A stretch of DNA of 52,821 nucleotides from Burkholderiales bacterium (GTDB lineage Bacteria > Pseudomonadota > Gammaproteobacteria > Burkholderiales > Burkholderiaceae_E). This document shows, one piece after another, positions 31,917-51,885 of the stretch; position 1 is the first letter of the stretch; every line of letters starts with the position of its first letter. The notes under the pieces are model-generated. The model saw only the letters and a program-made list of their open reading frames with translations, ran no database searches and was not told where the DNA came from. The stretch covers positions 1-52,821 of the forward strand of contig QEVN01000001.1 of NCBI GenBank assembly GCA_003576795.1, read 5' to 3'. Both the position numbers and the translations under genes were made by a program.

Positions 31917-32109
31917 CGTCGTCGCTCTCCGCGGTTGCCGGCCGCCGGGGCACCCGACGGCGACAACTGTCCGGAACGGGGTCGGGAAACGACCACGGGG
32001 AGCAGATTGGATCCCGTTTCGGCGCGCTTGGCAAGGGCGAAAACGCCAACTCGTTGCATCTGCAACCGATTTTCGACGCCCGAAGAAAGGTTGGATCCGC
32101 GACCCCCGA

Positions 32110-32199: not shown

Positions 32200-33348
32200 A
32201 TGAATCGATTCGCCGCACGCGTGCTCCAGGCGTCGCTGCTGGCCCTTGGGATCACCGGCGCATCGGCGCAATCGTTGCCGGAGAAACAAACGGTGGTCAC
32301 CCCGCCGCCGGCCGGTCCGACGCGTGCGTACGTGTCCGATATCGCGATCCAGCACATCGTCGACGGGCGCCTGCACGTCATCGACGTCGATGCCGCCCGC
32401 TACGTCGGCCAGATCCCGCTCGCCTACGCCGGGCAGGCGGTGCTGTCGCCCGACCGCAAGCGCATCTACGTCTCCACCACCTATTACCCGCGGCTGTGGC
32501 GGGGCACGCGCGCCGACGTCATCGACATCTGGGACGCGGAAACGCTGTCGTTCACCGGCGAGATCCCGATCCCCGAGCGGCGCGCGCAGGCGCTGAACTA
32601 CAAGGGGCTGATCAGCGTCTCGCCGGATTCGCACTGGCTGTACGTGCAGAACGCCACGCCGGCGAGCTCGATCAGCATCGTCGACCTGCGCGAGCGCAGG
32701 CTGGCGAGCGAGGTGGCCAATTCCGGCTGCTGGCTCGCGCTGCCGGTGCCGAGCGCGCCGAACCGCTTCGCCACGCTGTGCGGCGACGGCACGATGGAAA
32801 CGATCACGCTCGACGAGCGCGGCGCGCTCGCCTCGCGCACGCGCAGCGAGCGCTTCTTCGACGCCGACGTCGACCCGATCTTCGTGCACGCCGAGACGAT
32901 CGGCGACCGCTTCTTCTTCGTCTCGTACCTGGGCAAGGTGCACGAAGTCGACCTCTCCGCCGAGAAGCCGCGCGCGGTCGGCAGCTGGTCGATGATCGGC
33001 GCCGCCGACGCGAAGAAGAACTGGCGCCCCGGCGGCTACCAGCTGTTCGCCATTCACGCGAAGAGCGGCCGGATGTACGTGCTGATGCACCCCGACGGCC
33101 AGGAAGGCTCGCACAAGAACCCTGCCGCCGAGATCTGGGCCTTCGACCTCGCCACGAAGAAGCGCATCGCGCGCATTCCCGGCAACAACGCGATGTCGGT
33201 CACGGCGATCCAGGGCGGGGCTCCGCGCCTGGTGGCGCTGGACGCGATGACGATGGGGCTCGTGCTGATCGACGCCGGCGACAAGCCGCGCGTCGTGCAG
33301 CGGATGGACGGCGTCGCCGAGGCGGGCACGCTGATCGAGATGCAGTGA
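32200..33348 (+). CDS. aauB: TTQ (aromatic) amine dehydrogenase large subunit (AauB/MauB family)
   Basis: Signal peptide, beta-propeller-type sequence; VQNATPASSI, CGDG, WRPGGYQL, HPDGQEGSHKNPAAEIW resemble AADH as recalled. Confidence 0.9.
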   Translation: MNRFAARVLQASLLALGITGASAQSLPEKQTVVTPPPAGPTRAYVSDIAIQHIVDGRLHVIDVDAARYVGQIPLAYAGQAVLSPDRKRIYVSTTYYPRLWRGTRADVIDIWDAETLSFTGEIPIPERRAQALNYKGLISVSPDSHWLYVQNATPASSISIVDLRERRLASEVANSGCWLALPVPSAPNRFATLCGDGTMETITLDERGALASRTRSERFFDADVDPIFVHAETIGDRFFFVSYLGKVHEVDLSAEKPRAVGSWSMIGAADAKKNWRPGGYQLFAIHAKSGRMYVLMHPDGQEGSHKNPAAEIWAFDLATKKRIARIPGNNAMSVTAIQGGAPRLVALDAMTMGLVLIDAGDKPRVVQRMDGVAEAGTLIEMQ

Positions 33349-33920
33349 TGGCGCTGCCCGCGCTCGATCCCGTGCTCGGCCACGCCGTCGCCGGCGCGCT
33401 GGCGCTGGTGCTCGCCGTCGGCGCGTGGTCCAAGTTCGCCGACCTCGAGGCCTTCGCCTTCGCCGTCGAGCGCTACCGGCTGCTTCCGCCGCCTGCCGCG
33501 CGCGCCGTCGGCTTCGTGCTGCCCTTCGCCGAGGCTGCCGCGGCGGCGCTGCTCGTCGTGCCGGCCACCCGCCCGTCCGGGGCGCTGCTCGCCGCCGCGC
33601 TGGTCGCGCTCGTCACCGGCGCCGTCGTCGCCAACCTGCTGCGCGGCCGCACCGACATCGACTGCGGCTGCGGCGGTCCCGGACAACGACAGACGCTGTC
33701 CTGGCGCCTGCCCGCGCGCAACGCCGTGCTCCTTGCCGGATGCGCGCTCGCCGCGGCGCCGGCCGCATCGCGCCCGCTCGTCTGGCTCGACGCCTTCACC
33801 GCCACTTTCGCCGCGGCGGCGCTGTGGTTCGTCTACGCCGCCGCCGACGAGCTGCTGTCCGATCCGCATCGCCTGACGCAGCACGCCAACCGACTGCCCT
33901 CGCCGGGGACCCGCCGATGA
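33348..33920 (+). CDS. mauE: Amine dehydrogenase maturation membrane protein (MauE/AauE)
   Basis: YRLLP, NLLRGRTDIDCGCGG, RNAVLL; TGATG overlap with aauB. Confidence 0.92.
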   Translation: MALPALDPVLGHAVAGALALVLAVGAWSKFADLEAFAFAVERYRLLPPPAARAVGFVLPFAEAAAAALLVVPATRPSGALLAAALVALVTGAVVANLLRGRTDIDCGCGGPGQRQTLSWRLPARNAVLLAGCALAAAPAASRPLVWLDAFTATFAAAALWFVYAAADELLSDPHRLTQHANRLPSPGTRR

Positions 33921-34540
33921 CCGAAGCCCTGATCGTCTCGAACCTCGTCCTGTGGGTCGCCGTGCTGGCGCTGCTCGCCACCGTGTACGCGCTGGCGCGC
34001 CAGATCGGCGTGCTCTACGAGCGCATCGCGCCGATGGGCGCGCTGATGCTCGACGCCGGCCCGAAGGTCGGCGACGCGGCGCCGGCGCTCGAGCTGCAGA
34101 CGCTCGACGGACGAAGCTTCGCCACCGGCGGCGCGCGCGAGAAGAGCCTGCTGCTCTTCTTCCTGTCGCCCACCTGCCCGGTATGCAAGAAGCTGCTGCC
34201 GATCCTGCAGCGCGTCGCCGCCGACGAGCACGGCTGGCTCGAGCTGGCCTTCGCCAGCGACGGCGAACGCGACGAGCACGAGGCGTTCCGCGCGCGCGCC
34301 GGCATCGGCGCCTTCCCGTACGTGCTGTCCACCGAGCTGGGCATGTCCTACCGGATCGGCAAGCTGCCCTACGCGGTGCTGGTCGACGAGACCGGACGCG
34401 TGCGCGCCAAGGGGCTCGTCAATTCGCGCGAACAGCTCGAGAGCCTGTTCACGGCGCGAGAGCTGGGCGTCGCCTCGGTGCAGGAGTTCCTCGGCGACCG
34501 CGGCGAAACGATGCAGACGATGGAGGCGAGCAGGACATGA
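33917..34540 (+). CDS. mauD: Thioredoxin-like maturation protein (MauD/AauD)
   Basis: LARQIGVLYERIAPMGAL, SPTCPVCKKLLP, KGLVNSREQLESL. Confidence 0.95.
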   Translation: MTEALIVSNLVLWVAVLALLATVYALARQIGVLYERIAPMGALMLDAGPKVGDAAPALELQTLDGRSFATGGAREKSLLLFFLSPTCPVCKKLLPILQRVAADEHGWLELAFASDGERDEHEAFRARAGIGAFPYVLSTELGMSYRIGKLPYAVLVDETGRVRAKGLVNSREQLESLFTARELGVASVQEFLGDRGETMQTMEASRT

Positions 34541-35079
34541 ACTGGTTGGATGCGGCATTCGAGCGATCGACCCGCGCCGCCGCGCAGCGCACGTCGCGCC
34601 GCTCCGCGATCGCGCGCCTGGGACGATTGCTGCTCGGCGCGTCGGTCGCGCTGCCCGTGCTGCCCTTCGATCGCAGCGCGCACGCCGCCAAGGGGCACGG
34701 CGGCGGCGGCGCGAAGGGCGGCAAGGCGTTCCAGACCGACGACAAGCAGTGCGACTACTGGAAATATTGCGGCGTCGACGGCTTCCTCTGCTCGTGCTGC
34801 GGCGGCACCGTGAACTCGTGCCCGCCCGGCACCGAGCCGTCGAAGGTGTCGTGGGTCGGCACCTGCCGCAATCCGGCCGACGGCAAGGACTACCTCGTCA
34901 GCTACTTCGACTGCTGCGGCAAGAGCGCCTGCGGACGCTGCCTGTGCAACACGAACATCGGCGAGCGTCCGGCCTACCGCATCACGCTGCACAACGACAT
35001 CAACTGGTGCATGGGCAGCACCAGCACGATGTTCCATTGCACCACGTCGCTGATCGTCGGCGTGGCGGAAAAATCCTGA
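34537..35079 (+). CDS. aauA: TTQ amine dehydrogenase small (catalytic) subunit, AADH-like
   Basis: Tat-like SRRSAI leader; 14 Cys; TTQ Trp pair in VSWVGTC and DINWC; catalytic Asp in YFDCC; DGFLCSCCGG pattern is AADH-like. Confidence 0.93.
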   Translation: MNWLDAAFERSTRAAAQRTSRRSAIARLGRLLLGASVALPVLPFDRSAHAAKGHGGGGAKGGKAFQTDDKQCDYWKYCGVDGFLCSCCGGTVNSCPPGTEPSKVSWVGTCRNPADGKDYLVSYFDCCGKSACGRCLCNTNIGERPAYRITLHNDINWCMGSTSTMFHCTTSLIVGVAEKS

Positions 35080-35093
35080 GACAGGGAGGAGAG

Positions 35094-36458
35094 ATGAAGG
35101 CCAAGACCAAGCTTTGCGCGGCGCTCGCGCTCGCGTTCGCCTGCGGCGCCGCCGCGGCGGCCGTTCCGGAGGCCGAGGCCGCGCGCCTGGGCAAGGACCT
35201 CACGCCGATGGGCGCCGAGAAGGCCGGCAACAAGGACGGCACGATTCCCGCGTGGACCGGCGGCATCACGAAGGCGCCCGCCGGCTGGAAGCTGTCCGAC
35301 CCGCGCGTCGATCCGTACAAGGACGACAAGGTTCTCTTCTCGATCGACGCGTCGAACGTCGACAAGTACAAGGACAAGCTCTCCGAGGGCCAGCAGACGC
35401 TGATCCGCACGCTGCCCGGCTACCGGATGGACGTCTATCCCACGCACCGCTCCTGCGGCTACTCCGACAGCGTCTACCAGCGCAGCGCGGAGAACGCGCG
35501 CGTGGCGAAGCTGGTCGACGGCGGCTGGCAGCTCGAGAACGCGGTCGGCGGCGGCGTGCTGTTCCCGATTCCGAAGAACGGCGCCGAGGCGGTGTGGAAC
35601 CACAAGCTGCGCATCCAGAGCGAGGGGCGCATCGAGCACTACTCGACGCTGTTCTCGTCCAAGAGCGGCGACTTCTCCCAGCTCGCGCAGAACCAGTGGG
35701 TCGTCTATCCGCTGCACGAGCAGTCGACGAAGAGCTTCGACGACGTGAAGAAGTCGGAGGCGAAGATCCTCAACGAGGTGGTCAGCCCGGCGGCGCGCGC
35801 CGGCGAGATGATCCTCGTGCACTGGTTCATGGATCGCGGCTCGGACGCCTGGCTGTATTTCCCCGGCCAGCGCCGCGTGCGCCGCGCGCCGTCCTTCGCC
35901 TACGACAACCCGGTGCCCGGCTACGAGAACCTCGAGACGGTCGACCAGTACCCGATGTACGCCGGCGCGATGGACCGCTACGACTGGAAGCTCGTCGGCA
36001 AGAAGGAGATCTACGTTCCGTACAACAGCTGGAAGCTGATCGACAAGAGCCGCAAGTACAAGGACATCTACCTGCCCGACTACGTCAACCGCGACCTGAT
36101 GCGCTACGAGCTGCATCGCGTCTGGGTGGTGGAGGCGACGCTGAAGGAAGGCATGCGCCACATCTTCCCGCGCCGCGTGATGTTCATCGACGAGGACAGC
36201 TGGACGCTGCTGCTCACCGACCTGTACGACGCGCAGGGCAAGGTCTGGCGCGTGCAGGAAGCCAGCCTCTGGGTCGCGCCCGAGATTCCCGCCTGCGTGA
36301 GCCAGGAGTTCGTCGGCTACGACCTGAACGTCGGCCGCTACATCGCCGAGACCGCGACGCAGGAGCACCCGCCCACCGACTGGCTCGCCGGTCGCGAAGG
36401 CCGCATCAACCCGAACATGTTCAGTCCGGACGAACTGCGCCGCCGCGGCGAGCGTTGA
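35094..36458 (+). CDS. DUF1329 periplasmic protein
   Basis: LGKDLTPMGAEKAGNKDGTIPAWTGG, YFPGQRRVRRAP, RYELHRVWVVEATLK, DEDSW. Confidence 0.92.
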   Translation: MKAKTKLCAALALAFACGAAAAAVPEAEAARLGKDLTPMGAEKAGNKDGTIPAWTGGITKAPAGWKLSDPRVDPYKDDKVLFSIDASNVDKYKDKLSEGQQTLIRTLPGYRMDVYPTHRSCGYSDSVYQRSAENARVAKLVDGGWQLENAVGGGVLFPIPKNGAEAVWNHKLRIQSEGRIEHYSTLFSSKSGDFSQLAQNQWVVYPLHEQSTKSFDDVKKSEAKILNEVVSPAARAGEMILVHWFMDRGSDAWLYFPGQRRVRRAPSFAYDNPVPGYENLETVDQYPMYAGAMDRYDWKLVGKKEIYVPYNSWKLIDKSRKYKDIYLPDYVNRDLMRYELHRVWVVEATLKEGMRHIFPRRVMFIDEDSWTLLLTDLYDAQGKVWRVQEASLWVAPEIPACVSQEFVGYDLNVGRYIAETATQEHPPTDWLAGREGRINPNMFSPDELRRRGER

Positions 36459-36545
36459 GCGCGAGCGACCGGACGGAACCTTCACGCGGATGACATCAAC
36501 GCCGGCAGCGCCGGCAGCAGAACGAAGAACGGGGAGAACGCTGCG

Positions 36546-38429
36546 ATGACGAAGAAGAACGCAGGAGCCGCGACGGCGCGGCCCGCAACCCCGAAGCGCG
36601 CCGCGCTTCGGCCGACGGCCTCCGCGCAGGCCGTGGCGGTCGCGCTCGCGGCGCTGGCCGCCGGCCTGGCCGGCACGCCGGCGCACGCCTTCAAGTTCCA
36701 GACCGACTCGGTGCAGGGCAGCTTCGACTCCACCGTCTCGTTCGGCTTCATCAAGCGGATGCAGAAGACCGACCGCAGCATCATCAGCAACGACAACGGC
36801 GGCGACGTCCCGACCACGAGCCAGCTCGAGAGCCGGATGCAGTCGTACTACGGCCCCGGCAGCGCGGTGGCCAATCCCGACTTCAATTACCTGCAGGCCG
36901 ACGACGGCAACCTGAATTACAAGAAGGGCGACATCGTCTCGGCGGCGCTCAAGGGCACGCACGAGCTCGTGCTGCACGGCCCGAACCACTGGAGCGGGAT
37001 GCTGCGCGCCACCTGGTTCAAGGACTGGCAGGTCGACGACACGGCCCGCATGCCGCTGGACCCGGCCGCGCGCTCGGCCGCGGTCGACAAGTTCACCTGG
37101 CTCGACGCGTGGGTGGCCAAGGAGTTCGAGATCGCCGGCCGGCCCGCCAAGGTGAAGTTCGGCAACCAGGTGATCAGCTGGGGCGAGGACATCTTCATCT
37201 ACGGCGGCGTCAACGTCACCAACGCGATCAACCTGCAGACCGCGCACACGCCCGGCATGCAGCTGAAGGAGATCTTCCGGCCGGCGCCGATGGTCTCGCT
37301 GAACGCGAACATCGCCGAAGGGCTGAGCGTCGAGGGCTACTACCAGTTCCGCTGGAACGCGTTCAAGTTCGATCCGGTCGGCACCTTCTTCTCGGTCACC
37401 GACGTCATCGGCAAGGGCGCGCGCAACGCGTTCATCAACTCGACCTCGCTGGGGCTGCCGCCGGGGACGGTCGGCGACATCGGGACGATCAATCCGCTCA
37501 CGGGCCAGCGCTTCACGCTGGACGAGCTGTCGGCCGGCACGGCCACGATTCCGCTCGCGGGCACCCCGCTGCCGTCGCTCGTCTACCCGATGGAGACGAA
37601 CGAGCCGAAGAACTCCGGCCAGTTCGGCCTGGCCACGCGCTGGCTGCCCGAGGGATCCGAGACAGAGTACGGGCTGTACTGGATCCGCTACCACGACAAG
37701 CTGCCCTTCGTCGGCTTCAACTTCGATCCCGCGGTGCACACGACGAACGTCGCCGCTCTCGGCTACTTCGTCGACTACGGCGAGAGCCGCAACGTGTTCG
37801 GCATCTCGGCGAACACGCGCCTGGGCGACTGGGCGGTCGGCATGGAGCTGTCGTACCGGCCGAAGGACAGCGTCGGCATCGACGCGACGGTGCCCGCCGT
37901 CGGCAAGTACTCGGTCTTCGAGTTCCCGGGCAAGACGGTGCGCGGCTTCGTCACCGAGAAGAAATGGCAGGCGCACCTCACCGGCTTCAAGCTGCTGTCT
38001 CCCGGCGACATGGGCGGCGTGATCGGCGGGATCGGCGCCGAGGAAGGCTATTTCCTCGGCGAGGTCGCGGTGGCGCACTACCCGAGCCTGGATCTCTCGG
38101 GCCGCATCCCCTACCTGCTCACCGACTACTCGCTGCCCGACAAGACGTCGGCGGGCCTGGTCTTCTCCACCGGCCTGACCTATGCCAACGTCGGCGACAG
38201 CGGCTGGAACGTGCTGCCGCAGCTCGACGTCGCCTGGGACTTCCACGGCACCTCGCCGAACGCGGTGCCGTTCATCGACGGTCGCAAGGCCGCGACGATC
38301 TCGCTGAACTTCAACCGCTCCGACAAGTGGAAGGCCGGCATCGGCTACACGCGCTATTGGGGCGGCGGCGGCAACAACCTGATGAAGGACCGCGACTTCC
38401 TGTCGCTGGTCACCTCGGTGTCGTTCTGA
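36546..38429 (+). CDS. DUF1302 outer-membrane beta-barrel protein
   Basis: Signal peptide; FDSTVSFG, DDGNLNY, GNQVISWGE, GQFG, DRDFLSLVTSVSF (C-terminal Phe). Confidence 0.9.
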   Translation: MTKKNAGAATARPATPKRAALRPTASAQAVAVALAALAAGLAGTPAHAFKFQTDSVQGSFDSTVSFGFIKRMQKTDRSIISNDNGGDVPTTSQLESRMQSYYGPGSAVANPDFNYLQADDGNLNYKKGDIVSAALKGTHELVLHGPNHWSGMLRATWFKDWQVDDTARMPLDPAARSAAVDKFTWLDAWVAKEFEIAGRPAKVKFGNQVISWGEDIFIYGGVNVTNAINLQTAHTPGMQLKEIFRPAPMVSLNANIAEGLSVEGYYQFRWNAFKFDPVGTFFSVTDVIGKGARNAFINSTSLGLPPGTVGDIGTINPLTGQRFTLDELSAGTATIPLAGTPLPSLVYPMETNEPKNSGQFGLATRWLPEGSETEYGLYWIRYHDKLPFVGFNFDPAVHTTNVAALGYFVDYGESRNVFGISANTRLGDWAVGMELSYRPKDSVGIDATVPAVGKYSVFEFPGKTVRGFVTEKKWQAHLTGFKLLSPGDMGGVIGGIGAEEGYFLGEVAVAHYPSLDLSGRIPYLLTDYSLPDKTSAGLVFSTGLTYANVGDSGWNVLPQLDVAWDFHGTSPNAVPFIDGRKAATISLNFNRSDKWKAGIGYTRYWGGGGNNLMKDRDFLSLVTSVSF

Positions 38430-38472
38430 TTCCCCCTGCCCGACCACAACTCCCGTCTCACGGTGGCACCCG

Positions 38473-40833
38473 ATGATCGCCCGCAGCGTAGAACGTCTCC
38501 AGCGCCTGCTGTTCGGTCATCGGGCGCTGGTGCTCGCGCTGCTGGCGGTCTTCACCGCCGTGATGGGCGTGTTCGCGAGCCGGCTGCACATGGACGCCGG
38601 CTTCGACAAGCAGCTGCCGCAGCACCACGAGTACATCCGCACCTTCTTCGAGTTCCGTGACGAGGTCTTCGGCGCGAACCGGATCATCGTCGTCGTGCGC
38701 GCGCGCGACGGCGAGATCTGGACGGCGCCCGGCCTGCGCAAGCTCTACGACGTCACGCAGTCGGTGATGTTCCTGCCGGGCATCGACCGGCGCACCGTCA
38801 CCTCGCTGTGGACGCCGAATACGCGCGTGCTCGGCGTCACCGAGGAAGGCTTCAAGGCCGAGGACGTCATCGGCGGCGACATCACGCCCGACCGCCTCGA
38901 CGACGGGCGCATCGAGCGCATCCGGCACAACGCGCTGGTCGGCGGCTACATCGGCACGCTGGTGTCCACCGACAACGCCGGCGCGATGGTCGTCGCCGAC
39001 CTGCTCGAGACCGACCGCGCCACCGGGAAGAAGCTCGACTACCTCGATTTCGCCTCGCGCATCGAGCAGGAAGTGCGCGGCCGGCACGAGGACGCCGGCT
39101 ACGAGATCCAGATCATCGGCTTCGCCAAGCAGGTCGGCGACATCGCCGACGGCGCGACCAGCGTCGTCCACTTCTTCGCGCTCGCCTTCGTGCTCACGGC
39201 GCTCTCGGTGTGGCTGTACTGCCGCTCGTGGCGCCTCACGCTGCTCACGCTCGGCTGCTCGCTCGTCTCGGTGGTCTGGCAGTTCGGCACGCTGCGTCTG
39301 CTCGGCTACGGACTCGACCCGCTCGCCGTGCTCGTGCCTTTCCTCGTGTTCGCGATCGGCGTCTCGCACGGCGTGCAGCAGATCAACTACATCGTCAAGG
39401 AAACCTGCGCCGGTGCCGACAGCGGCACCGCGGCGCGGCGCGCCTTCACCGGGCTGCTGATTCCCGGATCGATGGCGCTGGTCACCGCCTTCGTCGGCTT
39501 CGCCACGCTCACGCTGATCCCGATCCCGATGATCCGCGAGCTGGGCATCACGGCATCGATCGGCGTGGCCTACAAGATCGTCACCAACCTCGTGATGCTG
39601 CCGGTCTCCGCCTCGTACCTCGGCTTCGACGACGCGTACGTGACGCGGATGAAGCGGCTGCGCGCGCGCCGCGAGCAGGTCATGGCCTGGCTCGGCGGAA
39701 TCGCAAGCACGCGCAACGCCGTCATCGGCACGCTGGCCGGCGCGCTGCTGTTCGCCGTCGCCTTCCAGCAGAGCCAGCACCGGCACGTCGGCCACCTCGC
39801 CTCGGGCGCGCCCGAGCTGCGCGCCGACTCGCGCTTCAACCGCGACGCGGCGTCGATCGTCGCCAGCTTCGACCTGGGCCTGGACGTGCTCACCGTGGTC
39901 TTCGAGGCGCCGAAGGACGGCTGCTACCGGCAGCCGGTGATGGCCTACATCGACCAGTTCGCCTGGCAGATGCAGAACGCGCCGGGCGTCATCTCGGTGG
40001 CTTCGGTCGCCCAGCTCGCCAAGCAGGCCTACGCCGGCACGAACGAAGGCCACCCGAAGTGGACCGCGCTCGCCGCCGACGAGCGCTCGCTCGCCAATTC
40101 GGTGGGCCTCATCCCCGAAGGCACCGGGCTCTTCAACCCGGGCTGCACCGTGCTGCCGGTGAACGTCTTCCTCACCGACCACAAGGCCACCACCGTCAAG
40201 GACGTGATCGCCGAGGTGCGCGCATTCCGCGACGCCGAGCGGATGAGCGACGTGAAGCTGCGGCTGGCGAGCGGCAACGTCGGCGTGCAGGCGGCGACCA
40301 ACGAGGTGCTCGAGACCACCGAGCTGCCGATGATGCTGTACGTCTACCTGACGATCGTCGCGCTCGTGTTCTTCACCTACCGCGACTGGCGCGCGATGCT
40401 CGCCTGCTGCGTGCCGCTCACGCTCGCCACCTTCCTCGGCTACTGGTTCATGAAGGAACTCGACATCGGTCTCACGGTGGCCACGCTGCCGGTGATGGTG
40501 CTGGCGGTGGGCATCGGCGTCGACTACGCGTTCTACATCTACAACCGCCTGCAGCTGCACCTGGCGCAGGGCGCGAACATCGCGGTCGCGTTCCGCCAGG
40601 CGCTGATGGAAACCGGCAACGCGACGGTCTTCACCGCGATCACGCTGTCGGTGGGCGTTGCCACCTGGTCGTTCTCGGAGCTGAAGTTCCAGGCCGACAT
40701 GGGCATGCTGCTCACGTTCATGTTCATGGTGAACATGCTGATGGCGATCACGCTGCTGCCGGCGATCGCCGTCACGCTCGACGTGCTGATTCCGCGCCGC
40801 CGGCCGGTGCGCGCGCCCTTCCTCGTCCACTGA
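38473..40833 (+). CDS. RND/MMPL-family inner-membrane transporter
   Basis: DAGFDKQLP, FAIGVSHGVQ, LPVMVLAVGIGVDY, LKFQADMG; two-repeat architecture. Confidence 0.92.
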   Translation: MIARSVERLQRLLFGHRALVLALLAVFTAVMGVFASRLHMDAGFDKQLPQHHEYIRTFFEFRDEVFGANRIIVVVRARDGEIWTAPGLRKLYDVTQSVMFLPGIDRRTVTSLWTPNTRVLGVTEEGFKAEDVIGGDITPDRLDDGRIERIRHNALVGGYIGTLVSTDNAGAMVVADLLETDRATGKKLDYLDFASRIEQEVRGRHEDAGYEIQIIGFAKQVGDIADGATSVVHFFALAFVLTALSVWLYCRSWRLTLLTLGCSLVSVVWQFGTLRLLGYGLDPLAVLVPFLVFAIGVSHGVQQINYIVKETCAGADSGTAARRAFTGLLIPGSMALVTAFVGFATLTLIPIPMIRELGITASIGVAYKIVTNLVMLPVSASYLGFDDAYVTRMKRLRARREQVMAWLGGIASTRNAVIGTLAGALLFAVAFQQSQHRHVGHLASGAPELRADSRFNRDAASIVASFDLGLDVLTVVFEAPKDGCYRQPVMAYIDQFAWQMQNAPGVISVASVAQLAKQAYAGTNEGHPKWTALAADERSLANSVGLIPEGTGLFNPGCTVLPVNVFLTDHKATTVKDVIAEVRAFRDAERMSDVKLRLASGNVGVQAATNEVLETTELPMMLYVYLTIVALVFFTYRDWRAMLACCVPLTLATFLGYWFMKELDIGLTVATLPVMVLAVGIGVDYAFYIYNRLQLHLAQGANIAVAFRQALMETGNATVFTAITLSVGVATWSFSELKFQADMGMLLTFMFMVNMLMAITLLPAIAVTLDVLIPRRRPVRAPFLVH

Positions 40834-40846
40834 AGCGCGAGTCATC

Positions 40847-41332
40847 GTGTTCGATAGCCTGATCCGCCGACTGTCGCTCGAGCCCGCCGCGCCGCCCGTC
40901 GCGCAGGCGGCGTTCGAGCGCCGCCAGCTCGCCGTCGCGGCGCTCCTCGTCGAGGCCGCGCACATCGACCGCCACGCCGGGCCCGACGAGCGCGGCGCGG
41001 TCGCGCGGCTGCTGCGCGGGCACTTCGGCCTGTCCGAACGCGACGCGCAAAGGCTCGTCGAAGAGGCCGAAGAGCGCTACGCGACGAGCCTCGACGACTG
41101 GATCTTCGCGCGCGCGGTGCGCGACGGCTTCGATCCCGCCGAACGCGTCGAGGTGCTGCGCATGCTGTGGGAGGTCGTCTACAGCGACGGCCGGCTCGCC
41201 GCCTTCGAGCTGGATCTGCTGCAGCGTCTCTGCGCCGCGCTGGGCATCGACGACGAAGCCGCCGAGGGTGCCCGCGTCCTCGCCTTCGCCAGCGCGAATC
41301 CGCACGATCCCGAGCAGGCGGGCGAGACATGA
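40847..41332 (+). CDS. TerB-family protein
   Basis: AALLVEAAHID....DER, LWEVVYSDG....E; GTG start. Confidence 0.82.
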   Translation: MFDSLIRRLSLEPAAPPVAQAAFERRQLAVAALLVEAAHIDRHAGPDERGAVARLLRGHFGLSERDAQRLVEEAEERYATSLDDWIFARAVRDGFDPAERVEVLRMLWEVVYSDGRLAAFELDLLQRLCAALGIDDEAAEGARVLAFASANPHDPEQAGET

Positions 41333-41388
41333 AGCGGCGCCTCCTTCGGATCGCCGCGATGAAGCGACCCCTCCTTCGCATCGCCGCG
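41329..41388 (+). repeat. 30-bp tandem duplication of the first 10 codons
   Basis: ATGAAGCGGCGCCTCCTTCGGATCGCCGCG / ATGAAGCGACCCCTCCTTCGCATCGCCGCG (3 mismatches). Confidence 0.85.
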
Positions 41389-42390: not shown

Positions 42391-42452
42391 GAAGCCGGGT
42401 GGGCAGGCGCCCTTTCCCTTCCTCTCGCACGAACGCACAACCGGAGACAAGC

Positions 42453-43940: not shown

Positions 43941-43965
43941 CGGCATTCACCGGAGGAGACCGGAA

Positions 43966-46089
43966 ATGACCCCTGCCCTGTTCGCGATCGGCATCGCCTT
44001 CGCAGGCGCGTACGGATCGGCCCTGGCCGCACCGAAGGCGCCGGCCGACGTCGACGGCGCGCGCATCGTCGCCGCCGATCGCGAACCGGGCAACTGGATG
44101 AGTCATGGCCGTACCTACGACGAGCAGCGCTTTTCGCCGCTCGCGCGCATCCACGACGGCAACGTCGGCAAGCTCGGCCTCGCCTGGACGCACAAGCTCG
44201 ACGTCGACCGCGGCGTCGAGTCGACGGCGATCGTCGTCGACGGGGTGATGTACACCACCGGCGCGCACAGCATCGTCTACGCGCTCGATGCGCGCAACGG
44301 AAAGCTGCTGTGGCGCTACGACCCGCAGGTGCCGGGCGAGAACCTGGGCCAGGGCTGCTGCGACGCGGTGAATCGCGGCGTCGCCGTCTGGAAAGGCAAG
44401 GTCTACGTCGGCACCTTCGACGGGCGCCTGGTGGCGCTCGATGCGCGCGACGGCAAGCCGGTATGGACCGTCGACACCGTCGTCGACCGCGCGAAGAGCT
44501 ACACGATCACCGGCGCGCCGCGCATCGTCAAGGGCAAGGTGCTGATCGGAAACGGCGGCGCCGAGTTCGGCGTGCGCGGCTACGTCACCGCGTACGACGC
44601 CGAGACCGGCAGGCAGGCCTGGCGCTTCTACACCGTGCCCGGCGACCCGAAGCTGCCGCCCGAAGACAAGGCGATGGAGATGGCGCTGAAGACCTGGCAC
44701 GGTCGCGGCTGGCTCGACTGGGGCGGCGGCGGCACCGTCTGGGACTCCATGGCCTACGACCCCGAGCTGAACCTGCTGTACATCGGCACCGGCAACGGCT
44801 CGCCGTGGAACCACAAGTTCCGCAGCGACGGCAAGGGCGACAACCTGTTCCTGTCGTCGATCGTCGCGCTGAATGCCGACACCGGCGAGTACGTGTGGCA
44901 CTACCAGACCACGCCGGCCGACCAGTGGGACTACACCGCCACGCAGCACATCGTGCTGGCCGACATCCGCATCGACGGCCAGGTGCGCAAGGTGCTGATG
45001 CAGGCGCCGAAGAACGGCTTCTTCTACGTGCTCGACCGCACCGACGGCAAGCTGCTGTCGGCGAAGAACTTCGTGCCGATCAACTGGGCGACGCACGTCG
45101 ACCCCGCCACCGGCCGTCCGGTCGTCACCCCCGACAGCGACTATCTCGCCGGGCCGAAGGTCATCGTCCCCAGCTTTCTCGGCGCGCACAACTGGCAGCC
45201 GATGTCGTTCAACCCGAAGACCGGCTACGTCTACCTGCCGGCGCAGGAGAGCGTCGCCGGACTGCAGGCGCAGGAAAAGCCGCTGTTCATTCCGCACAAG
45301 GCCGTGGTGAACCTCGGCGTCGAGGTGCCCGACCTGCCCGAGGATCCGAAGGTCGAAGCGCAGATCCGCAGCGCCTGGAAGGGCCGCCTCATCGCGTGGG
45401 ATCCGGTCCGGCAGCAGGCGGCGTGGACGCAGGAATACGTCGCGCCGTGGAACGGCGGCACGCTGAGCACCGCCGGCAACCTCGTGTTCCAGGGAACCGC
45501 CGACGGCCGCGCCGTGGCCTATGCGGCCGACAGCGGGAAGAAGCTGTGGGAAGCGCGCGTGAACTCCGGCTCGATGGCCGGGCCGGTCACCTACGAGGTC
45601 GACGGCGAGCAGTACGTCACGTTCATGGCCGGCTGGGGCGGCGCGTTCCCGCTCGTCACCGGGCCGCTGTCGCTGTCGGCGCGCGTGCAGCCGGAGGCGC
45701 GCGTGGTCACGTTCAAGCTCGGCGCCAGGGGCAAGCTGCCGCCGGCGAAGAAGGCCGTCGTTGCGCTGCCGCCGCTGCAGAAGGTGACGGCGAGCGCCGC
45801 CGACCTCGCCACCGCGCGCACGATGTTCAACGGCTTCTGCGGGTCGTGCCACGGCCTGAACGCCGTGAGCGGCGGCGTGCTGCCCGATCTGCGCTACCTG
45901 ACTCCGGCGAAGCACGAGCAGTACGTTGCCGTGTTGAGCGGCGCGAAGCTGAACCGCGGCATGCCGAGCTTCGCATCGGTGCTCGCGCCGAAGGACATGG
46001 AGCTGATCCGCCAGTACATCGTCAAGCGCGCGCACGACCTGAAGACGCAACTGGAGCTGATTCCGGTCGGAACGGCGCCGGCTCGATGA
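43966..46089 (+). CDS. Quinohemoprotein (PQQ/heme c) alcohol dehydrogenase, type II, probably Ca2+-dependent
   Basis: Signal peptide; GCCDAVNRG vicinal Cys, GNGGAEFGVRG, WDYTA, APKNGFFYVLDR; C-terminal CGSCH. Confidence 0.94.
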   Translation: MTPALFAIGIAFAGAYGSALAAPKAPADVDGARIVAADREPGNWMSHGRTYDEQRFSPLARIHDGNVGKLGLAWTHKLDVDRGVESTAIVVDGVMYTTGAHSIVYALDARNGKLLWRYDPQVPGENLGQGCCDAVNRGVAVWKGKVYVGTFDGRLVALDARDGKPVWTVDTVVDRAKSYTITGAPRIVKGKVLIGNGGAEFGVRGYVTAYDAETGRQAWRFYTVPGDPKLPPEDKAMEMALKTWHGRGWLDWGGGGTVWDSMAYDPELNLLYIGTGNGSPWNHKFRSDGKGDNLFLSSIVALNADTGEYVWHYQTTPADQWDYTATQHIVLADIRIDGQVRKVLMQAPKNGFFYVLDRTDGKLLSAKNFVPINWATHVDPATGRPVVTPDSDYLAGPKVIVPSFLGAHNWQPMSFNPKTGYVYLPAQESVAGLQAQEKPLFIPHKAVVNLGVEVPDLPEDPKVEAQIRSAWKGRLIAWDPVRQQAAWTQEYVAPWNGGTLSTAGNLVFQGTADGRAVAYAADSGKKLWEARVNSGSMAGPVTYEVDGEQYVTFMAGWGGAFPLVTGPLSLSARVQPEARVVTFKLGARGKLPPAKKAVVALPPLQKVTASAADLATARTMFNGFCGSCHGLNAVSGGVLPDLRYLTPAKHEQYVAVLSGAKLNRGMPSFASVLAPKDMELIRQYIVKRAHDLKTQLELIPVGTAPAR

Positions 46090-46481
46090 GGCCACGCGTG
46101 ATGCGCGGTGCGGCGCTCGGCAGGGCGATCGCCGCCGCGTGCGCCGCGGCGCTCGGCGTCGCCGGCGCGGTCGCGGGCCCGTCCACTGCGCAGCCGCGCA
46201 CGACGGGATCGTCCGCGGCGACGCTGTACGCGCTGAACTGCATGGGGTGCCATCCGTCGCCGAAGACGAGCGAGCACGACGCGGGTCCGCTGCGCGGCGA
46301 GTTCTTCCACAACGACAAGGGCCGCAACTTCTTCATCCGGATGCCGGACGGGAGCAGGCGCCTGTCGGCGTCGGAGGAAGCGCGGCTGCTCGAGGAAGTG
46401 CTCACGTGGAAGCGCGCCTGCGCGGCGATCCGGCAGGATGCGCCGATGGTCGACTACCGCGGCGAACACTTCGTTCGCTGA
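46086..46481 (+). CDS. Small monoheme c-type cytochrome
   Basis: Signal peptide, LYALNCMGCH; ATGA overlap with the ADH gene. Confidence 0.78.
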   Translation: MRPRVMRGAALGRAIAAACAAALGVAGAVAGPSTAQPRTTGSSAATLYALNCMGCHPSPKTSEHDAGPLRGEFFHNDKGRNFFIRMPDGSRRLSASEEARLLEEVLTWKRACAAIRQDAPMVDYRGEHFVR

Positions 46482-46484
46482 GCC

Positions 46485-47609
46485 GTGCCGGAACCGAAGC
46501 CCGTCGCGCGAGGGGGTCGCAGGAAGCTGCGCGCGAGCGTTGGAGCGGCGCTCCTCGCCGCGCTGTGCGCGAGCGGCGCGGCGACCTCGGCGTCGTCGCC
46601 CGCACCGTCCCCGGCGGCTTCCCCCGCCCCGCGGGTCGCGGAACGCATCGCGCTCGGTCGCGAGCTGTTCTTCGAATCGCGCCTCTCGGGCGACGGCAGC
46701 CGCAGCTGCGCGAGCTGTCACGCGCCGGACAAGGGCTACGCCGACGGCGAGGCGCTCTCGCGCGGCTACAACCATGCCGGGCACTTCCGCAACACGCCTT
46801 CGCTGATCGCGCTGGCCGCGAAGCCACGCCTGATGTGGGACGGCCGCTATCCGGCGGAGCGGCTGGCCGACGTCGTCGTCGACATGATCCGGTCGCCGGT
46901 GACGATGAACGGCGATCTGCAGATCGTCGTCGAGCGCGTGCGGCAGCTCCCGTCGCTGCTGCAGGCGTGGCAACGCGCATACGGAGCGCGCGAAGCGCCG
47001 AGCATCGACGGGCTGGTGGACGCGCTCGCCGCGTACGCGAGCTCGCGCGGCAACGCGCAGACGCCGGTCGATCGCGCGCTGCATGGCGACGAACAGGCGC
47101 TGTCGGCAGCGGCGCTCGAAGGCATGCGCCTGTTCCAGGGCAAGGCGGGCTGCGCGCGCTGCCATTCGGGTGCCGCGTTCACCGACGGCGGCCTGCATCG
47201 CCTGGGCGTGCCCGAGAACCCCGAGATCCTGCGCGACCCGGAGCGAACGATCAGCCTGCTGCGCCATTACGCGGTGCACGGCGCGCGCGACCCGATGTCC
47301 GAACGCGCCGACACGGGCGCTGCGGCGTGGACGCAGCGCGCCGCGGACCGCGGCCGCTTCGCCACGCCCTCGCTGCGCGGCGTGGCGCTCACCGCGCCCT
47401 ACATGCACAACGGCGTCTTCGCGACGCTCGCGCAGGTCGTCGAGTTCTACGACCGCGGCGGCGGACGCGCGAGCGAACTGCAGCCGCTCGGGCTGGACGC
47501 GCGCGAGCGCGCGGCGCTCGTCGCCTTCCTCGAGGCGCTGTCGCCGCCGCTGCCGCCGGAGAGCGCTCCGCCGACGGACAACTACGCGACCACCGGAGCG
47601 GGCCGATGA
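46485..47609 (+). CDS. Diheme cytochrome c peroxidase/MauG-superfamily protein, paralogue 1
   Basis: LGRELFFESRLSGDG, CASCH, RNTPSL, MWDGR, CARCH, TPSLR..ALTAPYMHNG. Confidence 0.9.
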   Translation: MPEPKPVARGGRRKLRASVGAALLAALCASGAATSASSPAPSPAASPAPRVAERIALGRELFFESRLSGDGSRSCASCHAPDKGYADGEALSRGYNHAGHFRNTPSLIALAAKPRLMWDGRYPAERLADVVVDMIRSPVTMNGDLQIVVERVRQLPSLLQAWQRAYGAREAPSIDGLVDALAAYASSRGNAQTPVDRALHGDEQALSAAALEGMRLFQGKAGCARCHSGAAFTDGGLHRLGVPENPEILRDPERTISLLRHYAVHGARDPMSERADTGAAAWTQRAADRGRFATPSLRGVALTAPYMHNGVFATLAQVVEFYDRGGGRASELQPLGLDARERAALVAFLEALSPPLPPESAPPTDNYATTGAGR

Positions 47610-48946
47610 AGCGTCGCCGCTTCGCCGCGGCCGGCGCCGCGCTCGTCGTCGGCGCCGCGTCCGCGATCATCGGCGCGCTGGCGATCTCGGCCGTACTCGC
47701 ATCGGCGTTCCCCGGCGCGGCGGCTACCGGCGCAGCGGCTACCGACCCGGCCCCACCCAGCCGCGATCTTCCCCCTTCCCCCTCCCCCCTTCTCCCTTCT
47801 CTTCCCGCAAACCTGCCACCCCTCGCCCCGCTCCCCCCGGTGCCGATTCCCGCCGACAACCCGATGTCGGCGCAGAAGATCGAACTGGGCAAGCTGCTGT
47901 TCTTCGACGCGCGGCTGTCGGGCGACGCGTCGACCTCGTGCGCGTCCTGCCACGTCGCACAGCACGGCTGGGCGCACCACGAGCCGCTCGCGCCGGGCTA
48001 TCCGGGCCACCGGCTGTGGCGCAACAACCCGACCGTGCTCAACGCCGCGCACTTCCGGCGACTGATGTGGGACGGCACGATCGACCGCCTCGAAGTGCAG
48101 GCTCGCTCGGCGATGCAGGCGCCGGTCGAAGGCAACGGAAAAGCCGAGCTGGTCGAGATGCGGCTGCGGCTCGTGCCCGAATACGTCGATCGCTTCCGCG
48201 AGGTGTTCGGCACCGACTGGCCGCAGCTCGACGACGCCTGGCGCGCGATCGCGGCCTTCGAGCGAACGATCGTCTCCGACCCGCGTCGCGTGCCCTTCGA
48301 TCGCTTCGCCGCCGGCGACGCGAGCGCGATGACGCCGGCCGCGCAGCGCGGCCATGCGCTCTTCACCGGCAAGGCGCGCTGCATCGCCTGCCACAACGGG
48401 CCGCTGGCCAGCGACCAGCAGTACCACGCGCTCGGCGTTCCGCGCCAGACGCTGTTCGACTCGAGCCCGCTCGTGCAGGTCGCCGTGCGCTGGCAGAACG
48501 CGCAGCGCGACGCGCCGCGCGCGCTGTACCGCGACGCCGAGGAAGACCTCGGCCGCTGGTACCGCACGCGCGACCCCGCCGACATCGGGCGCTTTCGCAC
48601 GCCGTCGCTGCGCGAACTGCGCTACACGGCGCCCTACATGCACAACGGCGTCTTCGCGACGCTCGCCGAGGTGGTCGACTTCTTCGATCGCGGCGGCGGC
48701 GACGCGCCGAACAGGTCGCCGCTGCTGCAGCCGCTGGGCCTGAGCGCCGCGGAGAAGAGCGACCTCGTCGCCTTCCTCGAGGCGCTGAGCATGGAGGAGC
48801 CGCTCGTCGTCGCGACGCCGGCGCTGCCGCCGATGATGCCGCTGGTCGACACGGCGCAGGCGGCCTGCACGATCGAAGCGAGCCTGGCGAGCGAAGCGGG
48901 CGCGGCGAACCGAACGGGCGCGACGGGCGCAACGCGCGGGAGATGA
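47606..48946 (+). CDS. Diheme cytochrome c peroxidase/MauG-superfamily protein, paralogue 2
   Basis: PADNPM..K.ELGKLLFFDARLSGD, CASCH, RNNPT, MWDG, CIACH, FRTPSLREL.YTAPYMHNG. Confidence 0.9.
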   Translation: MKRRRFAAAGAALVVGAASAIIGALAISAVLASAFPGAAATGAAATDPAPPSRDLPPSPSPLLPSLPANLPPLAPLPPVPIPADNPMSAQKIELGKLLFFDARLSGDASTSCASCHVAQHGWAHHEPLAPGYPGHRLWRNNPTVLNAAHFRRLMWDGTIDRLEVQARSAMQAPVEGNGKAELVEMRLRLVPEYVDRFREVFGTDWPQLDDAWRAIAAFERTIVSDPRRVPFDRFAAGDASAMTPAAQRGHALFTGKARCIACHNGPLASDQQYHALGVPRQTLFDSSPLVQVAVRWQNAQRDAPRALYRDAEEDLGRWYRTRDPADIGRFRTPSLRELRYTAPYMHNGVFATLAEVVDFFDRGGGDAPNRSPLLQPLGLSAAEKSDLVAFLEALSMEEPLVVATPALPPMMPLVDTAQAACTIEASLASEAGAANRTGATGATRGR

Positions 48947-51276
48947 GCATGGGTCGCCTGTGGAACCGCTACGTGATGCACCGGCGACGCTGGTGGATCC
49001 CGCTCGCGGCGGTGCTCGCCATCGGCGTGCTGAGCATGCTGTACATGGGTGCGCGCACCTACGCCGACGCGCCGCCCGTGCCCGACTTCGTCGACGAGCG
49101 GGGAACGACGCAGGTGGCCGCCGACGCGATCCGGCGCGGACAGGCCGTGTTCCTGAAATACGGGCTGATGAACTACGGCAGCTTCTTCGGCGACGGCGCC
49201 GGCCGCGGCCCCGATTTCACCGCCGACGCGCTGCATCGCGTGGCGATCGCGATGCGCGACTGGCATGCATCGCGCGACGGCGTCGACGACGACTCGGCGC
49301 TCGCCGCCGCGCAGCGGGCGATCCGCCGCAACCGCTACGACGAATCGACGAACCTCGTGCGCATCGGCGAAGCGCAGGCCTATGCCGCGCGCGACCTCGA
49401 GCGGCAGGTCGCCGCGCGCTTTCGCGGCGAAGGCAACGAGCCCTTCCATCCGGCCGGCTGGATCTCCGACGAGGCCGAGTTGCGCGACCTCGCCGCGTTC
49501 TTCTTCTGGGGCGCGTGGGTATGCGGCGCCGAGCGCCCGGGCGAGCGCTACTCGTACACGCACAACTGGCCCTACGACGAGCTGGCGGGCAACCGTCCGA
49601 GCGCGCAGGTCGTGCTGTGGAGCGCCGTCGCCGTGCTCGCGCTCGTTGCCGCGCTGGGCGCGGTCCTGTTCGCGTACGGGCGCTATTCGAGGATCGCCGG
49701 CTGGCGCTCGTCGGAGCGGCAAGCGCAACCGGCGCAGGCGCAGCGACGGCGACGCATCGAATTCCCCGGCGAAGCGAGCGTGCACTCGCCGCTCGAAGCC
49801 GCGCCGTCGGCGCTGCAGCGCGCGACCTGGAAGTTCTTCGTCGTCGCCGCGGTGCTCTTCGTGCTGCAGATCGTCGCCGGCATCCTCACCGTGCACGACT
49901 TCCTCGGCGTCACGCGCGTGTTCGGCATCGATCTCGCCCAGACGCTGCCGATCCCGATCGTGCGCGGCTGGCACCTGCAACTCGCGCTGCTGTGGATCAC
50001 CGCGTGCTGGATCGGCTCGTCGATCTTCGTCATCTCCACCGCCAGCCCGCAGGCGATCGCCGGGCAGCGGCGCCTCGTCGATGCGATGTTCGTGCTGCTC
50101 GTCGTCACCGCGGCCGGCGGCCTGGCCGGCGTGGCCCTCGGCCCGCACGGCGTCCTCGGCGAGCACTGGCATTGGCTGGGCAGCCAGGGCTGGGAGTTCG
50201 TCGAGCAGGGGCGCCTGTGGCAGGCGATGCTCTTCGTCGTGATCGCGCTGTGGGCGGTCGTGCTCGCGCGCGCGGTCGTCCCGACCTGGCGCACGGGCGA
50301 TGCCTGGACGCTGCCCAAATGGCTCGTCTGGTGCGTCGCCTGCGTGCTGCTGCTGTTCCTTTCGGGCTTCGTCTCCGGGCCCGAGACGAACTTCGTCGTC
50401 GCCGACTTCTGGCGCTGGGCGGTGATCCACATGTGGGTCGAGGCCTTCTTCGAGGTGTTCGCCACCGCGCTGCTGGCCTACTGCATGGTGCTGATGCGGC
50501 TCGTGAGCCACGCGGCGGCCTCGCGCATCGTCTATCTGGCGACGCTGCTCTTCCTCGGCTCGGGGCTGCTCGGCATCTCGCACAACTTCTACTGGAACGC
50601 CAAGCCGGTGGTCACGCTGGCGATCGGCAGCGTCTTCTCGACGCTGCAGGTGGTGCCGCTGATCCTGCTCACGCTCGAGGCCTGGCAGTTCCGCAACGCG
50701 CCGCAGCGCGCCGGCGCCGCCTTCGCGCACGGCGAGGCCTTCGTCTTCCTGCTCGGCGTGAACTTCTGGAACTTCCTCGGCGCCGGAATGTTCGGCTTTC
50801 TCGTCAACCTGCCGATCGTCAACTACTACGAGCACGGCACCTATCTCACCGTGAACCACGGGCACGCCGCGCTGATGGGCGTCTACGGCAACCTCGCGAT
50901 CGCGATGATCGTGTTCTGCGCGCGCAGCCTCGTCGAGCCGGCGCACTGGAATGCGCGGCTGCTGCGCTGCGTCTTCTGGTCGATCAACGTCGGGCTGATG
51001 GGGATGGTCGTGCTCGACCTCTTCCCGGTGGGCGTCGCGCAGCTGATGGACGTGCTCGAGAATGGCCTGTGGCACGCGCGCTCGCAGGTCTTCGTGCAGG
51101 GAACGCTCTTCCAGGCGCTGACCTGGGCGCGCATCGTCGGCGGCGCGATCTTCGTGCTCGGCGGCGTGTTGCCGCTCGCGTGGTTCGTGCTGACGCGCTC
51201 GGCGTCGCTGAAAGCGGCGCAGCCCGAGCCTTCGCTGCCGCCGGCTACGCGATCAGTGCCCGAGCCTTCGCTTTGA
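48943..51276 (+). CDS. qNor-family heme-copper-oxidase-superfamily protein with NO dismutase (Nod)-like substitutions
   Basis: YGSFFGDGAGRGPDFTADALH, YTHNWPYD, RGWHLQ, HMWVEAFFEVF, GISHNFYW (HN in place of HH), STLQVVP (Q in place of E), NHGHAA; ATGA overlap with the upstream gene. Confidence 0.88.
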   Translation: MSMGRLWNRYVMHRRRWWIPLAAVLAIGVLSMLYMGARTYADAPPVPDFVDERGTTQVAADAIRRGQAVFLKYGLMNYGSFFGDGAGRGPDFTADALHRVAIAMRDWHASRDGVDDDSALAAAQRAIRRNRYDESTNLVRIGEAQAYAARDLERQVAARFRGEGNEPFHPAGWISDEAELRDLAAFFFWGAWVCGAERPGERYSYTHNWPYDELAGNRPSAQVVLWSAVAVLALVAALGAVLFAYGRYSRIAGWRSSERQAQPAQAQRRRRIEFPGEASVHSPLEAAPSALQRATWKFFVVAAVLFVLQIVAGILTVHDFLGVTRVFGIDLAQTLPIPIVRGWHLQLALLWITACWIGSSIFVISTASPQAIAGQRRLVDAMFVLLVVTAAGGLAGVALGPHGVLGEHWHWLGSQGWEFVEQGRLWQAMLFVVIALWAVVLARAVVPTWRTGDAWTLPKWLVWCVACVLLLFLSGFVSGPETNFVVADFWRWAVIHMWVEAFFEVFATALLAYCMVLMRLVSHAAASRIVYLATLLFLGSGLLGISHNFYWNAKPVVTLAIGSVFSTLQVVPLILLTLEAWQFRNAPQRAGAAFAHGEAFVFLLGVNFWNFLGAGMFGFLVNLPIVNYYEHGTYLTVNHGHAALMGVYGNLAIAMIVFCARSLVEPAHWNARLLRCVFWSINVGLMGMVVLDLFPVGVAQLMDVLENGLWHARSQVFVQGTLFQALTWARIVGGAIFVLGGVLPLAWFVLTRSASLKAAQPEPSLPPATRSVPEPSL

Positions 51277-51822: not shown

Positions 51823-51885
51823 GTGCGGCGTAATCCTCGGTTCGCGCCTCGGTTCGCCTCGGCTCGCCTGCTCGCACCGGCTTCT

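Follow-up and report, generated by a model that had tools for sequence, protein, structure and literature searches.

A 52,821-nucleotide stretch of DNA from a Burkholderiales bacterium (GenBank assembly GCA_003576795.1, contig QEVN01000001.1, positions 1 to 52,821; hereafter the window) carries a 15-gene operon (32200-51276, + strand) that runs from aauB, encoding the large subunit of a tryptophan tryptophylquinone (TTQ) amine dehydrogenase, to a gene of the putative nitric oxide dismutase (Nod) type. Our analysis uncovered one Nod lineage tied twice to TTQ amine dehydrogenases via a di-haem partner, here behind a tandem pair of di-haem proteins (CCP1 and CCP2) and again in Hyphomicrobium behind a MauG. 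We tentatively favor, with confidence a little short of even, a role in which Nod would make a small supply of oxidant from nitric oxide (NO) for TTQ maturation in anoxia. Gene order, conservation, residues and tree positions were observed; from these we infer the chemistry throughout, what Nod makes and what the di-haem pair acts on. An earlier note on this DNA had already proposed that the tail of the operon supplies an oxidant for quinone maturation; the link between Nod and TTQ holds and the oxidant role is still the best reading, while the parts of the proposal that rested on MauG membership and on pyrroloquinoline quinone (PQQ) are not supported.

Two pairings of one Nod lineage

All 15 genes are co-directional, and the largest gap (87 nt) lies between the DUF1329 and DUF1302 genes. 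Seven junctions are 4-nt overlaps (aauB-E, E-D, D-A, TerB-YCF48, alcohol dehydrogenase-cytochrome c, CCP1-CCP2 and CCP2-Nod) and only 3 nt separate the cytochrome c gene from CCP1; the layout is as the earlier note had described it. The gene order was found again in 13 GTDB loci, and aauA and nod lie on a single contig, 10-14 kb apart, in 13 of the 36 genomes of the host genus. The order is therefore not due to chance and, judged by sequence, the operon is real and conserved. The note's connection of the tail to the TTQ enzyme stood up in the gene-neighborhood comparison that the note had called for, and the mauG-nod case in Hyphomicrobium adds an independent instance.

Within the host genus, 24 genomes carry aauA and 22 a Nod orthologue (at least 74% identity). 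Nod was present in 22 of the 24 aauA-positive and in none of the 12 aauA-negative genomes, which are kin and not independent; the two aauA-positive genomes without it are ~70% complete. The genus of genome G659 had this Nod in none of its 21 genomes. Metagenome Nods were scanned in the best 80 of 334 loci by Nod alignment, with 500 bp required upstream and 17 loci dropped for short flanks. Among the 17 Nods of at least 65% identity, 14 stand behind a di-haem gene, two behind eutR and one behind neither, whereas none of the 46 below 65% follows a di-haem gene; the pairing is therefore no general need of Nod. One neighbor cluster, an Rrf2 regulator (named by sequence and bioRxiv 2023.11.21.568154), is shared by 25 of the 80 loci. 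In G002, L155 and L156, nod stands alone behind eutR and is directly divergent from it.

The surroundings of CCP2 were compared in the best 80 of 536 confirmed GTDB loci, a sample that includes Denitromonas iodatirespirans IR-12 and whose closest named loci are Burkholderiaceae metagenome-assembled genomes, one labelled Zeimonas. The plain iodate-reductase order (two idrP genes, idrB, idrA) was seen in 55 loci and the order cytochrome c, di-haem pair, nod in 13. Eight loci have idrBA after the cytochrome c gene and the pair, six of them with amine-cluster genes in view, and four are amine clusters with neither terminal gene; G174 adds a ninth case with idrBA. Hence in nine relatives idrBA occupies the slot of nod directly behind the pair, and in four the slot is empty. 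None of the nine idrBA-type genomes holds this Nod; among the four empty-slot genomes G002 alone does, at another site immediately behind a eutR copy. Nod and IdrBA are unrelated enzymes, both proposed to release O2 or H2O2, that share one slot.

Placement of idrBA inside amine dehydrogenase clusters was observed in L030, L035, L037, L040, L043-L045, L052 and L127. The amine-linked IdrA proteins (six in the tree) form their own clade with support 1.0 and carry 14 changes at otherwise invariant IdrA sites; judging from these, their substrate may be other than iodate. One Rhodocyclaceae locus has a 582-residue gene inserted between CCP1 and CCP2 (L024:1921-3666).

The second pairing came from two metagenome Nods (72%) that follow a different di-haem gene, encoding a Paracoccus-type MauG (E 3e-139 to 3L4M) in which Trp199 and Tyr294 are kept. 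Locus L178 runs on into mauF-B-E-D, with mauB over the methylamine dehydrogenase (MADH) cut-off. In the Hyphomicrobium family this Nod is present in three of 301 genomes; in each the nod start overlaps the mauG stop and mauA is present, and in G1075 mauG-nod sits between mauMN and mauFBEDA. Loci L170 and L178 match two of these three genomes and are not extra cases. In a quick IQ-TREE of 34 of 120 rows, supported only by the Shimodaira-Hasegawa-like approximate likelihood ratio test (SH-aLRT), the Nods that carry the label Hyphomicrobium sp. fall within the clade of the host genus (SH-aLRT 99 within 100), from which we infer that the lineage moved from the host-genus side into Hyphomicrobium.

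Two kinds of MauG were seen in Hyphomicrobium-family genomes (L245, L259, L260, L263). The TIGR03791 type follows mauA-amicyanin-mauJ-like genes, and the Paracoccus type, scoring ~90 bits by TIGR03791, lies elsewhere; homologues of the latter occur in 32 of 401 genomes of Hyphomicrobium's order. A protein of 330 residues (L245:10102-11091), matched by neither Pfam nor NCBIfam, accompanies mau clusters and in two genomes is encoded ahead of mauG-nod.

Proteins of the operon

The operon and its divergent regulator comprise the following features (window coordinates, strand).

30924..31940 (-): EutR-like AraC regulator, divergent from the operon (PF12833; NF007522 193 bits, below cut-off)
32200..33348 (+): aauB, TTQ amine dehydrogenase large subunit (PF06433)
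33345..33920 (+): aauE, MauE family (PF07291)
33917..34540 (+): aauD, MauD (TIGR02661 over cut-off)
34537..35079 (+): aauA, small subunit that carries TTQ; both cofactor Trp present (PF02975)
35094..36458 (+): DUF1329 periplasmic protein, likely uptake module (PF07044)
36546..38429 (+): DUF1302 outer-membrane protein, likely uptake module (PF06980)
38473..40833 (+): RND/MMPL-family transporter (PF03176)
40847..41332 (+): TerB-family protein (PF05099)
41329..42390 (+): YCF48/BNR beta-propeller (PF14870)
42453..43940 (+): phenylacetaldehyde dehydrogenase, StyD type (NF045735 885 bits against a cut-off of 850)
43966..46089 (+): quinohaemoprotein (PQQ and haem c) alcohol dehydrogenase (TIGR03075 over cut-off)
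46086..46481 (+): small mono-haem cytochrome c of the c552 fold; 'T' subtype, marked by an additional invariant Cys
46485..47609 (+): CCP1, IdrP-type di-haem protein (PF03150; 45% to the IR-12 idr protein)
47606..48946 (+): CCP2, IdrP-type di-haem protein (PF03150; 55% to the IR-12 idr protein)
48943..51276 (+): qNor-family protein of the Nod type (PF00115 and PF22085; aligned to 3AYF)

Residues of the Nod-type protein were assigned by alignment to Geobacillus qNor (3AYF) and compared in the 120 best homologues. N548 stands at the position of His560 (motif H547-N548) and Q569 at that of Glu581, with Asn and Gln, respectively, in 120 of 120 homologues; G734 replaces Asp746 (Gly in 119 of 120) and the other haem ligands are retained. 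The residues of a canonical qNor (three FeB His, Glu581 and the His328/Asp746 pair) are thus incomplete. The His to Asn and Glu to Gln changes at the non-haem metal site are described as Nod features (PMC3413370, PMC11549561), and by its residues the last gene encodes a putative Nod in which half of the quinol site is changed. Supplementary Table 1 of PMC11549561 gives ten Zeimonas, two Sulfuritalea and one Polaromonas species as NOD-positive, a match at genus level only. Frameshifts split nod in G032:C14 and L022, through assembly error or decay.

The sequences place CCP1 and CCP2 as derivatives of the IdrP pair of iodate-reductase islands and not as MauG. They form a tandem pair, and both nest within the IdrP trees. 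In FastTree analyses of both paralogues (the 80 best CCP2 loci, with four amine-linked CCP1 missing), the amine-linked CCP2 form a single clade (0.995) inside IdrP, and the Nod-linked CCP2 a subclade of it (1.0) that contains one empty-slot case. The earlier note had called the pair MauG-like. As a statement of membership this fails, as the two proteins score 187 and 212 bits with TIGR03791 against a cut-off of 443.85, CCP2 has Phe at the Tyr294 position and CCP1 is without Gln103 and Glu113. The TIGR03791 test is one-sided, since it also misses the Paracoccus-type MauG (92 bits). Absence of Trp199 was dropped as a disqualifier because TIGR03791-type MauGs are without it as well. The Met/His electron-transfer haem of canonical bacterial cytochrome c peroxidase was not found in the pair, which has Phe or Tyr at the Met position.

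Mapped via the Paracoccus-type MauG, CCP2 has Trp93, Gln103 and Glu113, with Ala at Pro107 and Phe360 at the Tyr294 position. CCP1 has Trp93, with Val, Met and Thr at positions 103, 107 and 113 and a further Met at 114; at its haem-2 ligand position (294) it has Tyr322, which is His in eight of 14 Nod-linked orthologues. All 14 Nod-linked and all four empty-slot P2 proteins carry Glu113 (18 of 18 with no idrBA beside them), as against none of 63 idrBA-linked ones. A distal Glu is required for peroxide activation, and loss of the Tyr abolishes the bis-Fe(IV) state in both BthA and MauG, BthA retaining peroxidase activity (PMC6405878). With Glu113 kept and Tyr294 changed to Phe, CCP2 is therefore predicted to activate peroxide and not to form the MauG-type state alone; by these residues it would be partly MauG-like in its working without being a MauG member. 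In the plain idr loci (L047 and 54 others), Glu113 was found in P2 in none of 55 and in P1 in none of 51, which questions the usual description of IdrP as an H2O2 peroxidase.

The best PDB match of AauA is aromatic amine dehydrogenase (AADH; E 4e-55, against 1e-36 for Paracoccus MADH). Both TTQ tryptophans and the Cys-rich fold are present, and aauB, E and D adjoin; by these sequence features the operon enzyme belongs to the AADH family. The StyD-type aldehyde dehydrogenase, whose gene is absent or substituted in some relatives, is only suggestive of phenylethylamine, tyramine or tryptamine oxidation. The small cytochrome c gene belongs to the core aau set but has diverged, and its 'T' subtype was seen only in clusters with the di-haem pair (25 cases). 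Its structure prediction was set aside (predicted local distance difference test score of 58).

In a survey of 400 Burkholderiales genomes, 35 were found to encode TTQ small subunits, through 43 genes in total. This Nod is in none of these 35 genomes and the di-haem pair in one. Of the 39 loci fetched (L109-L148), 37 have only a small cytochrome c gene after aauA, one has mauG and one the pair with idrBA. In those 37 loci the cytochrome c gene directly follows aauA and encodes a Thermus c552-fold protein without the distal-Met segment. Some loci also have a second paralogue, in which the Met is retained. Standing where mauG stands in mau clusters, this small cytochrome c could be the maturation factor that AADH has so far lacked.

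The PQQ alcohol dehydrogenase is private to the window genome, at this position in no relative examined, and queries with pqqB, C and E from another genome had no match in the host, which is 83% complete (the pqqC family search was without a positive control). The O2 demand of PQQ biosynthesis, to which the earlier note had appealed, was rejected on both grounds as an explanation for the tail.

The EutR-like regulator is kept upstream of aauB in relatives. At the other end, a MazF-like toxin gene (51245-51877, -; NF007386 over cut-off) overlaps the 3' end of nod, with a small open reading frame upstream of it that is probably its antitoxin, and a HAD-family hydrolase follows (51971-52603, -), 58% like one within the G002-type amine cluster. 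A HAD-family hydrolase and a class III aminotransferase adjoin the operon in relatives, and the system may therefore reach past nod. Positions 1-30874 hold housekeeping genes (dapF, lipid A acyltransferases, ahcY, metF, HD and EAL proteins, a transglycosylase and an Mrp/Pha antiporter); no sign of a mobile element was seen there, and the GC content of the operon matches its flanks. A promoter and terminator scan gave nothing above chance, and no FNR box was found in the window. Contigs from X2 and X3, two runs labelled as RNA, span several junctions (CCP2-nod among them) but cover a control stretch of the window at equal depth; they therefore look like DNA and give no evidence of transcription or co-transcription.

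For denitrification the host genome has narG, nosZ and genes like nirS and nirK, and a NOR-like oxidase gene is present separately; the further haem-copper oxidases number three. CCP1 and CCP2 are the only CCP_MauG genes found in this 83% complete genome. Its benzoyl-CoA-reductase-like genes score below cut-offs and were not used as support for an anaerobic aromatic pathway. A second non-canonical haem-copper oxidase gene (G000:C133:539-2014) has a GH-VFINATIY motif, which we take to be sNOR-like.

Possible functions of the tail

In our favored model, the operon would join a periplasmic TTQ amine dehydrogenase and likely uptake and aldehyde-oxidizing genes to a tail that acts as a low-flux oxidant supply. 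MauG uses three H2O2 per cofactor in TTQ synthesis (PMC11951088), and the demand of a denitrifier for such oxidant would be small but strict. From the NO of denitrification, Nod would make O2 or an oxidant at the peroxide level. CCP2, with its Gln and Glu and with the aid of CCP1 and the small cytochrome c, would activate this oxidant and so oxidize both AauA tryptophans to TTQ without air. The trees suggest a history in which an aau cluster captured an idrP-P-B-A island and one branch retained idrBA. Another branch would have lost idrBA, its CCP2 having the peroxide-activating Glu, and Nod would have taken the empty slot and later moved to Hyphomicrobium, behind the Paracoccus-type MauG. IdrBA, proposed to release HIO and H2O2, may be the older oxidant feed in sister clusters, and the empty-slot clusters may rely on ambient oxygen. 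Common to both contexts are a TTQ dehydrogenase, a di-haem protein with an intact Gln/Glu pocket and a coupled Nod, so that an oxidant feed would be the simplest shared purpose. The model draws support from the co-occurrence of Nod with aauA in the host genus, the slot shared with idrBA, the Glu113 pattern, the second recruitment in Hyphomicrobium, the restriction of di-haem neighbors to Nods of at least 65% identity, and the denitrification genes of the host together with its lack of other CCP_MauG genes. We consider doubtful the wider proposal that Nod is biosynthetic and gives a trickle of O2 or peroxide to a di-haem maturase, that IdrBA does the same job in sister clusters and that the IdrP pair with its Met-less cytochrome c is an unrecognized split replacement for MauG.

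Several observations weigh against an oxidant feed. The mauG-nod pairing is rare in the Hyphomicrobium family, and all three genomes that have it also have a TIGR03791-type mauG (two over the cut-off, one at 442 of 444), which in two cases was seen in its usual position behind mauA; mauG-nod itself is away from mauA in two of the three. With the TIGR03791 type in all three, the Nod-coupled mauG is a second copy, which rules it out as the sole MauG of these genomes. In the window's own lineage, Phe is at the Tyr294 position in 14 of 14 Nod-linked CCP2 and His is common in CCP1 (eight of 14); loss of the Tyr with peroxidase activity kept fits a plain peroxidase better, and the Glu113 pattern may be a single tree event. 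Of the quinol site, His328 remains in 107 of 120 Nod homologues, the window protein included (His318), Nod activity has not been biochemically shown for any member in the literature consulted and foraminiferal Nod-like genes accompany N2O production (cited in PMC6636425). No di-haem gene lies nearby in 37 of the 39 other Burkholderiales TTQ loci, and a MauG-like match at 1e-20 was absent from three near-complete genomes, and therefore the AADH type can mature without the pair.

It seems unlikely that the tail is instead an electron sink, the alternative raised in the earlier note, in which amine dehydrogenase would feed the small cytochrome c, the di-haem pair and then IdrBA, or Nod as a cytochrome-fed NO reductase. 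MauG is not an electron carrier of MADH, and the Hyphomicrobium partner is a MauG orthologue in mau clusters that already have amicyanin-like genes. The sink would explain why plain IdrP has no Glu113 (0 of 55), why CCP1 has Met at two distal positions, as in electron carriers, and why the operon, unlike some aau clusters, is without amicyanin, azurin or a Met-bearing cytochrome c. Loss of Asp746 from the Nod-like protein, and its cytochrome c domain without haem (PF22085), would likewise suit a cytochrome-fed enzyme. Against the sink, Glu581 is Gln in all 120 homologues, four clusters retain the pair with no terminal enzyme and the host has other NO- and O2-reducing oxidases.

Equally improbable, in our view, is that CCP2 only removes H2O2, fed by the dehydrogenase, and that Nod is a passenger that shares the amine regulator or serves another O2-dependent aromatic step, neither having a role in TTQ. 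The combination of Glu kept and Tyr lost is that of BthA Y463H, a peroxidase without bis-Fe(IV) (PMC6405878), IdrP1/P2, whose role PMC11445184 calls unclear, have been proposed as H2O2 scavengers (bioRxiv 2020.12.28.424624), and the three loci with nod alone behind eutR agree with a shared regulator. Scavenging leaves unexplained why, in methylamine users, Nod was placed once more behind a MauG, one with Tyr and Trp intact, and why all 46 distant Nods are without a peroxidase neighbor; the operon holds no oxygenase.

MauG forms NO adducts, and Nod could be a local NO sink that spares the five-coordinate haem of the maturation enzyme during denitrification, its product being irrelevant. In both pairings the partner is a di-haem enzyme with a five-coordinate haem, which agrees with such a shield, as does the Rrf2 regulator beside many distant Nods (25 of 80 loci). 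The shield is nevertheless quite improbable, as an ordinary qNor would do and yet the Asn/Gln form was recruited, idrBA in the same slot has no role in it and an oxidant would still be required in anoxia.

Nod is a proposed source of 'dark oxygen' whose activity is so far unproven and whose gene neighbors were inconsistent until this lineage. An oxidant feed to TTQ would offer a sensitive read-out for Nod, namely anoxic TTQ formation with and without nod and its rescue by trace O2. The locus also bears on how AADH forms TTQ without mauG and on the role of IdrP1/P2, and idrABP1P2 within amine clusters of freshwater Sulfuritalea-like genomes may not signal iodate respiration.

Comparison with known systems

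Each part of the operon belongs to a known family, and the combination of aau genes, IdrP-type pair and Nod appears new, as no paper describing it was found at title and abstract level, mostly without subscription literature.

The di-haem pair shares with MauG (of both the Paracoccus denitrificans and TIGR03791 types) the family, two CXXCH motifs, Trp93 and a TTQ-enzyme gene context, and CCP2 also shares Gln103 and Glu113. It differs in having ~30-35% identity, no Pro107 and two paralogues instead of one, in the Phe at Tyr294 of CCP2 and in a CCP1 without the peroxide pocket; Trp199 is absent from the pair, and likewise from TIGR03791-type MauGs. Its closer counterpart is the pair of the idrABP1P2 island of Denitromonas iodatirespirans IR-12 and Pseudomonas SCT (45% for CCP1 and 55% for CCP2 to IR-12). 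The operon has no idrA or idrB, nor are they among the five molybdoenzyme matches of the genome, and CCP2 has Glu113 without Tyr294, the reverse of plain IdrP.

The Nod-type protein agrees with the Nod of Ca. Methylomirabilis oxyfera and of strain HdN1, as their features are given in papers, in the His to Asn and Glu to Gln changes, the haem ligands and the loss of Asp746. It is unlike them in keeping His328, in its fixed neighborhood and in an operon without methane or alkane monooxygenase; Elbon et al. report no consistent neighborhood for marine nod genes.

With the aauBEDA cluster of Alcaligenes faecalis, the operon shares the common B-E-D-A order, an AauA whose nearest PDB relative is AADH and a small mono-haem cytochrome c gene, which we take to be orf-2 of that cluster. 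The cytochrome c is divergent here and has shifted away from aauA, and the operon adds the DUF1329/DUF1302/RND/YCF48 module, the IdrP-type pair and Nod.

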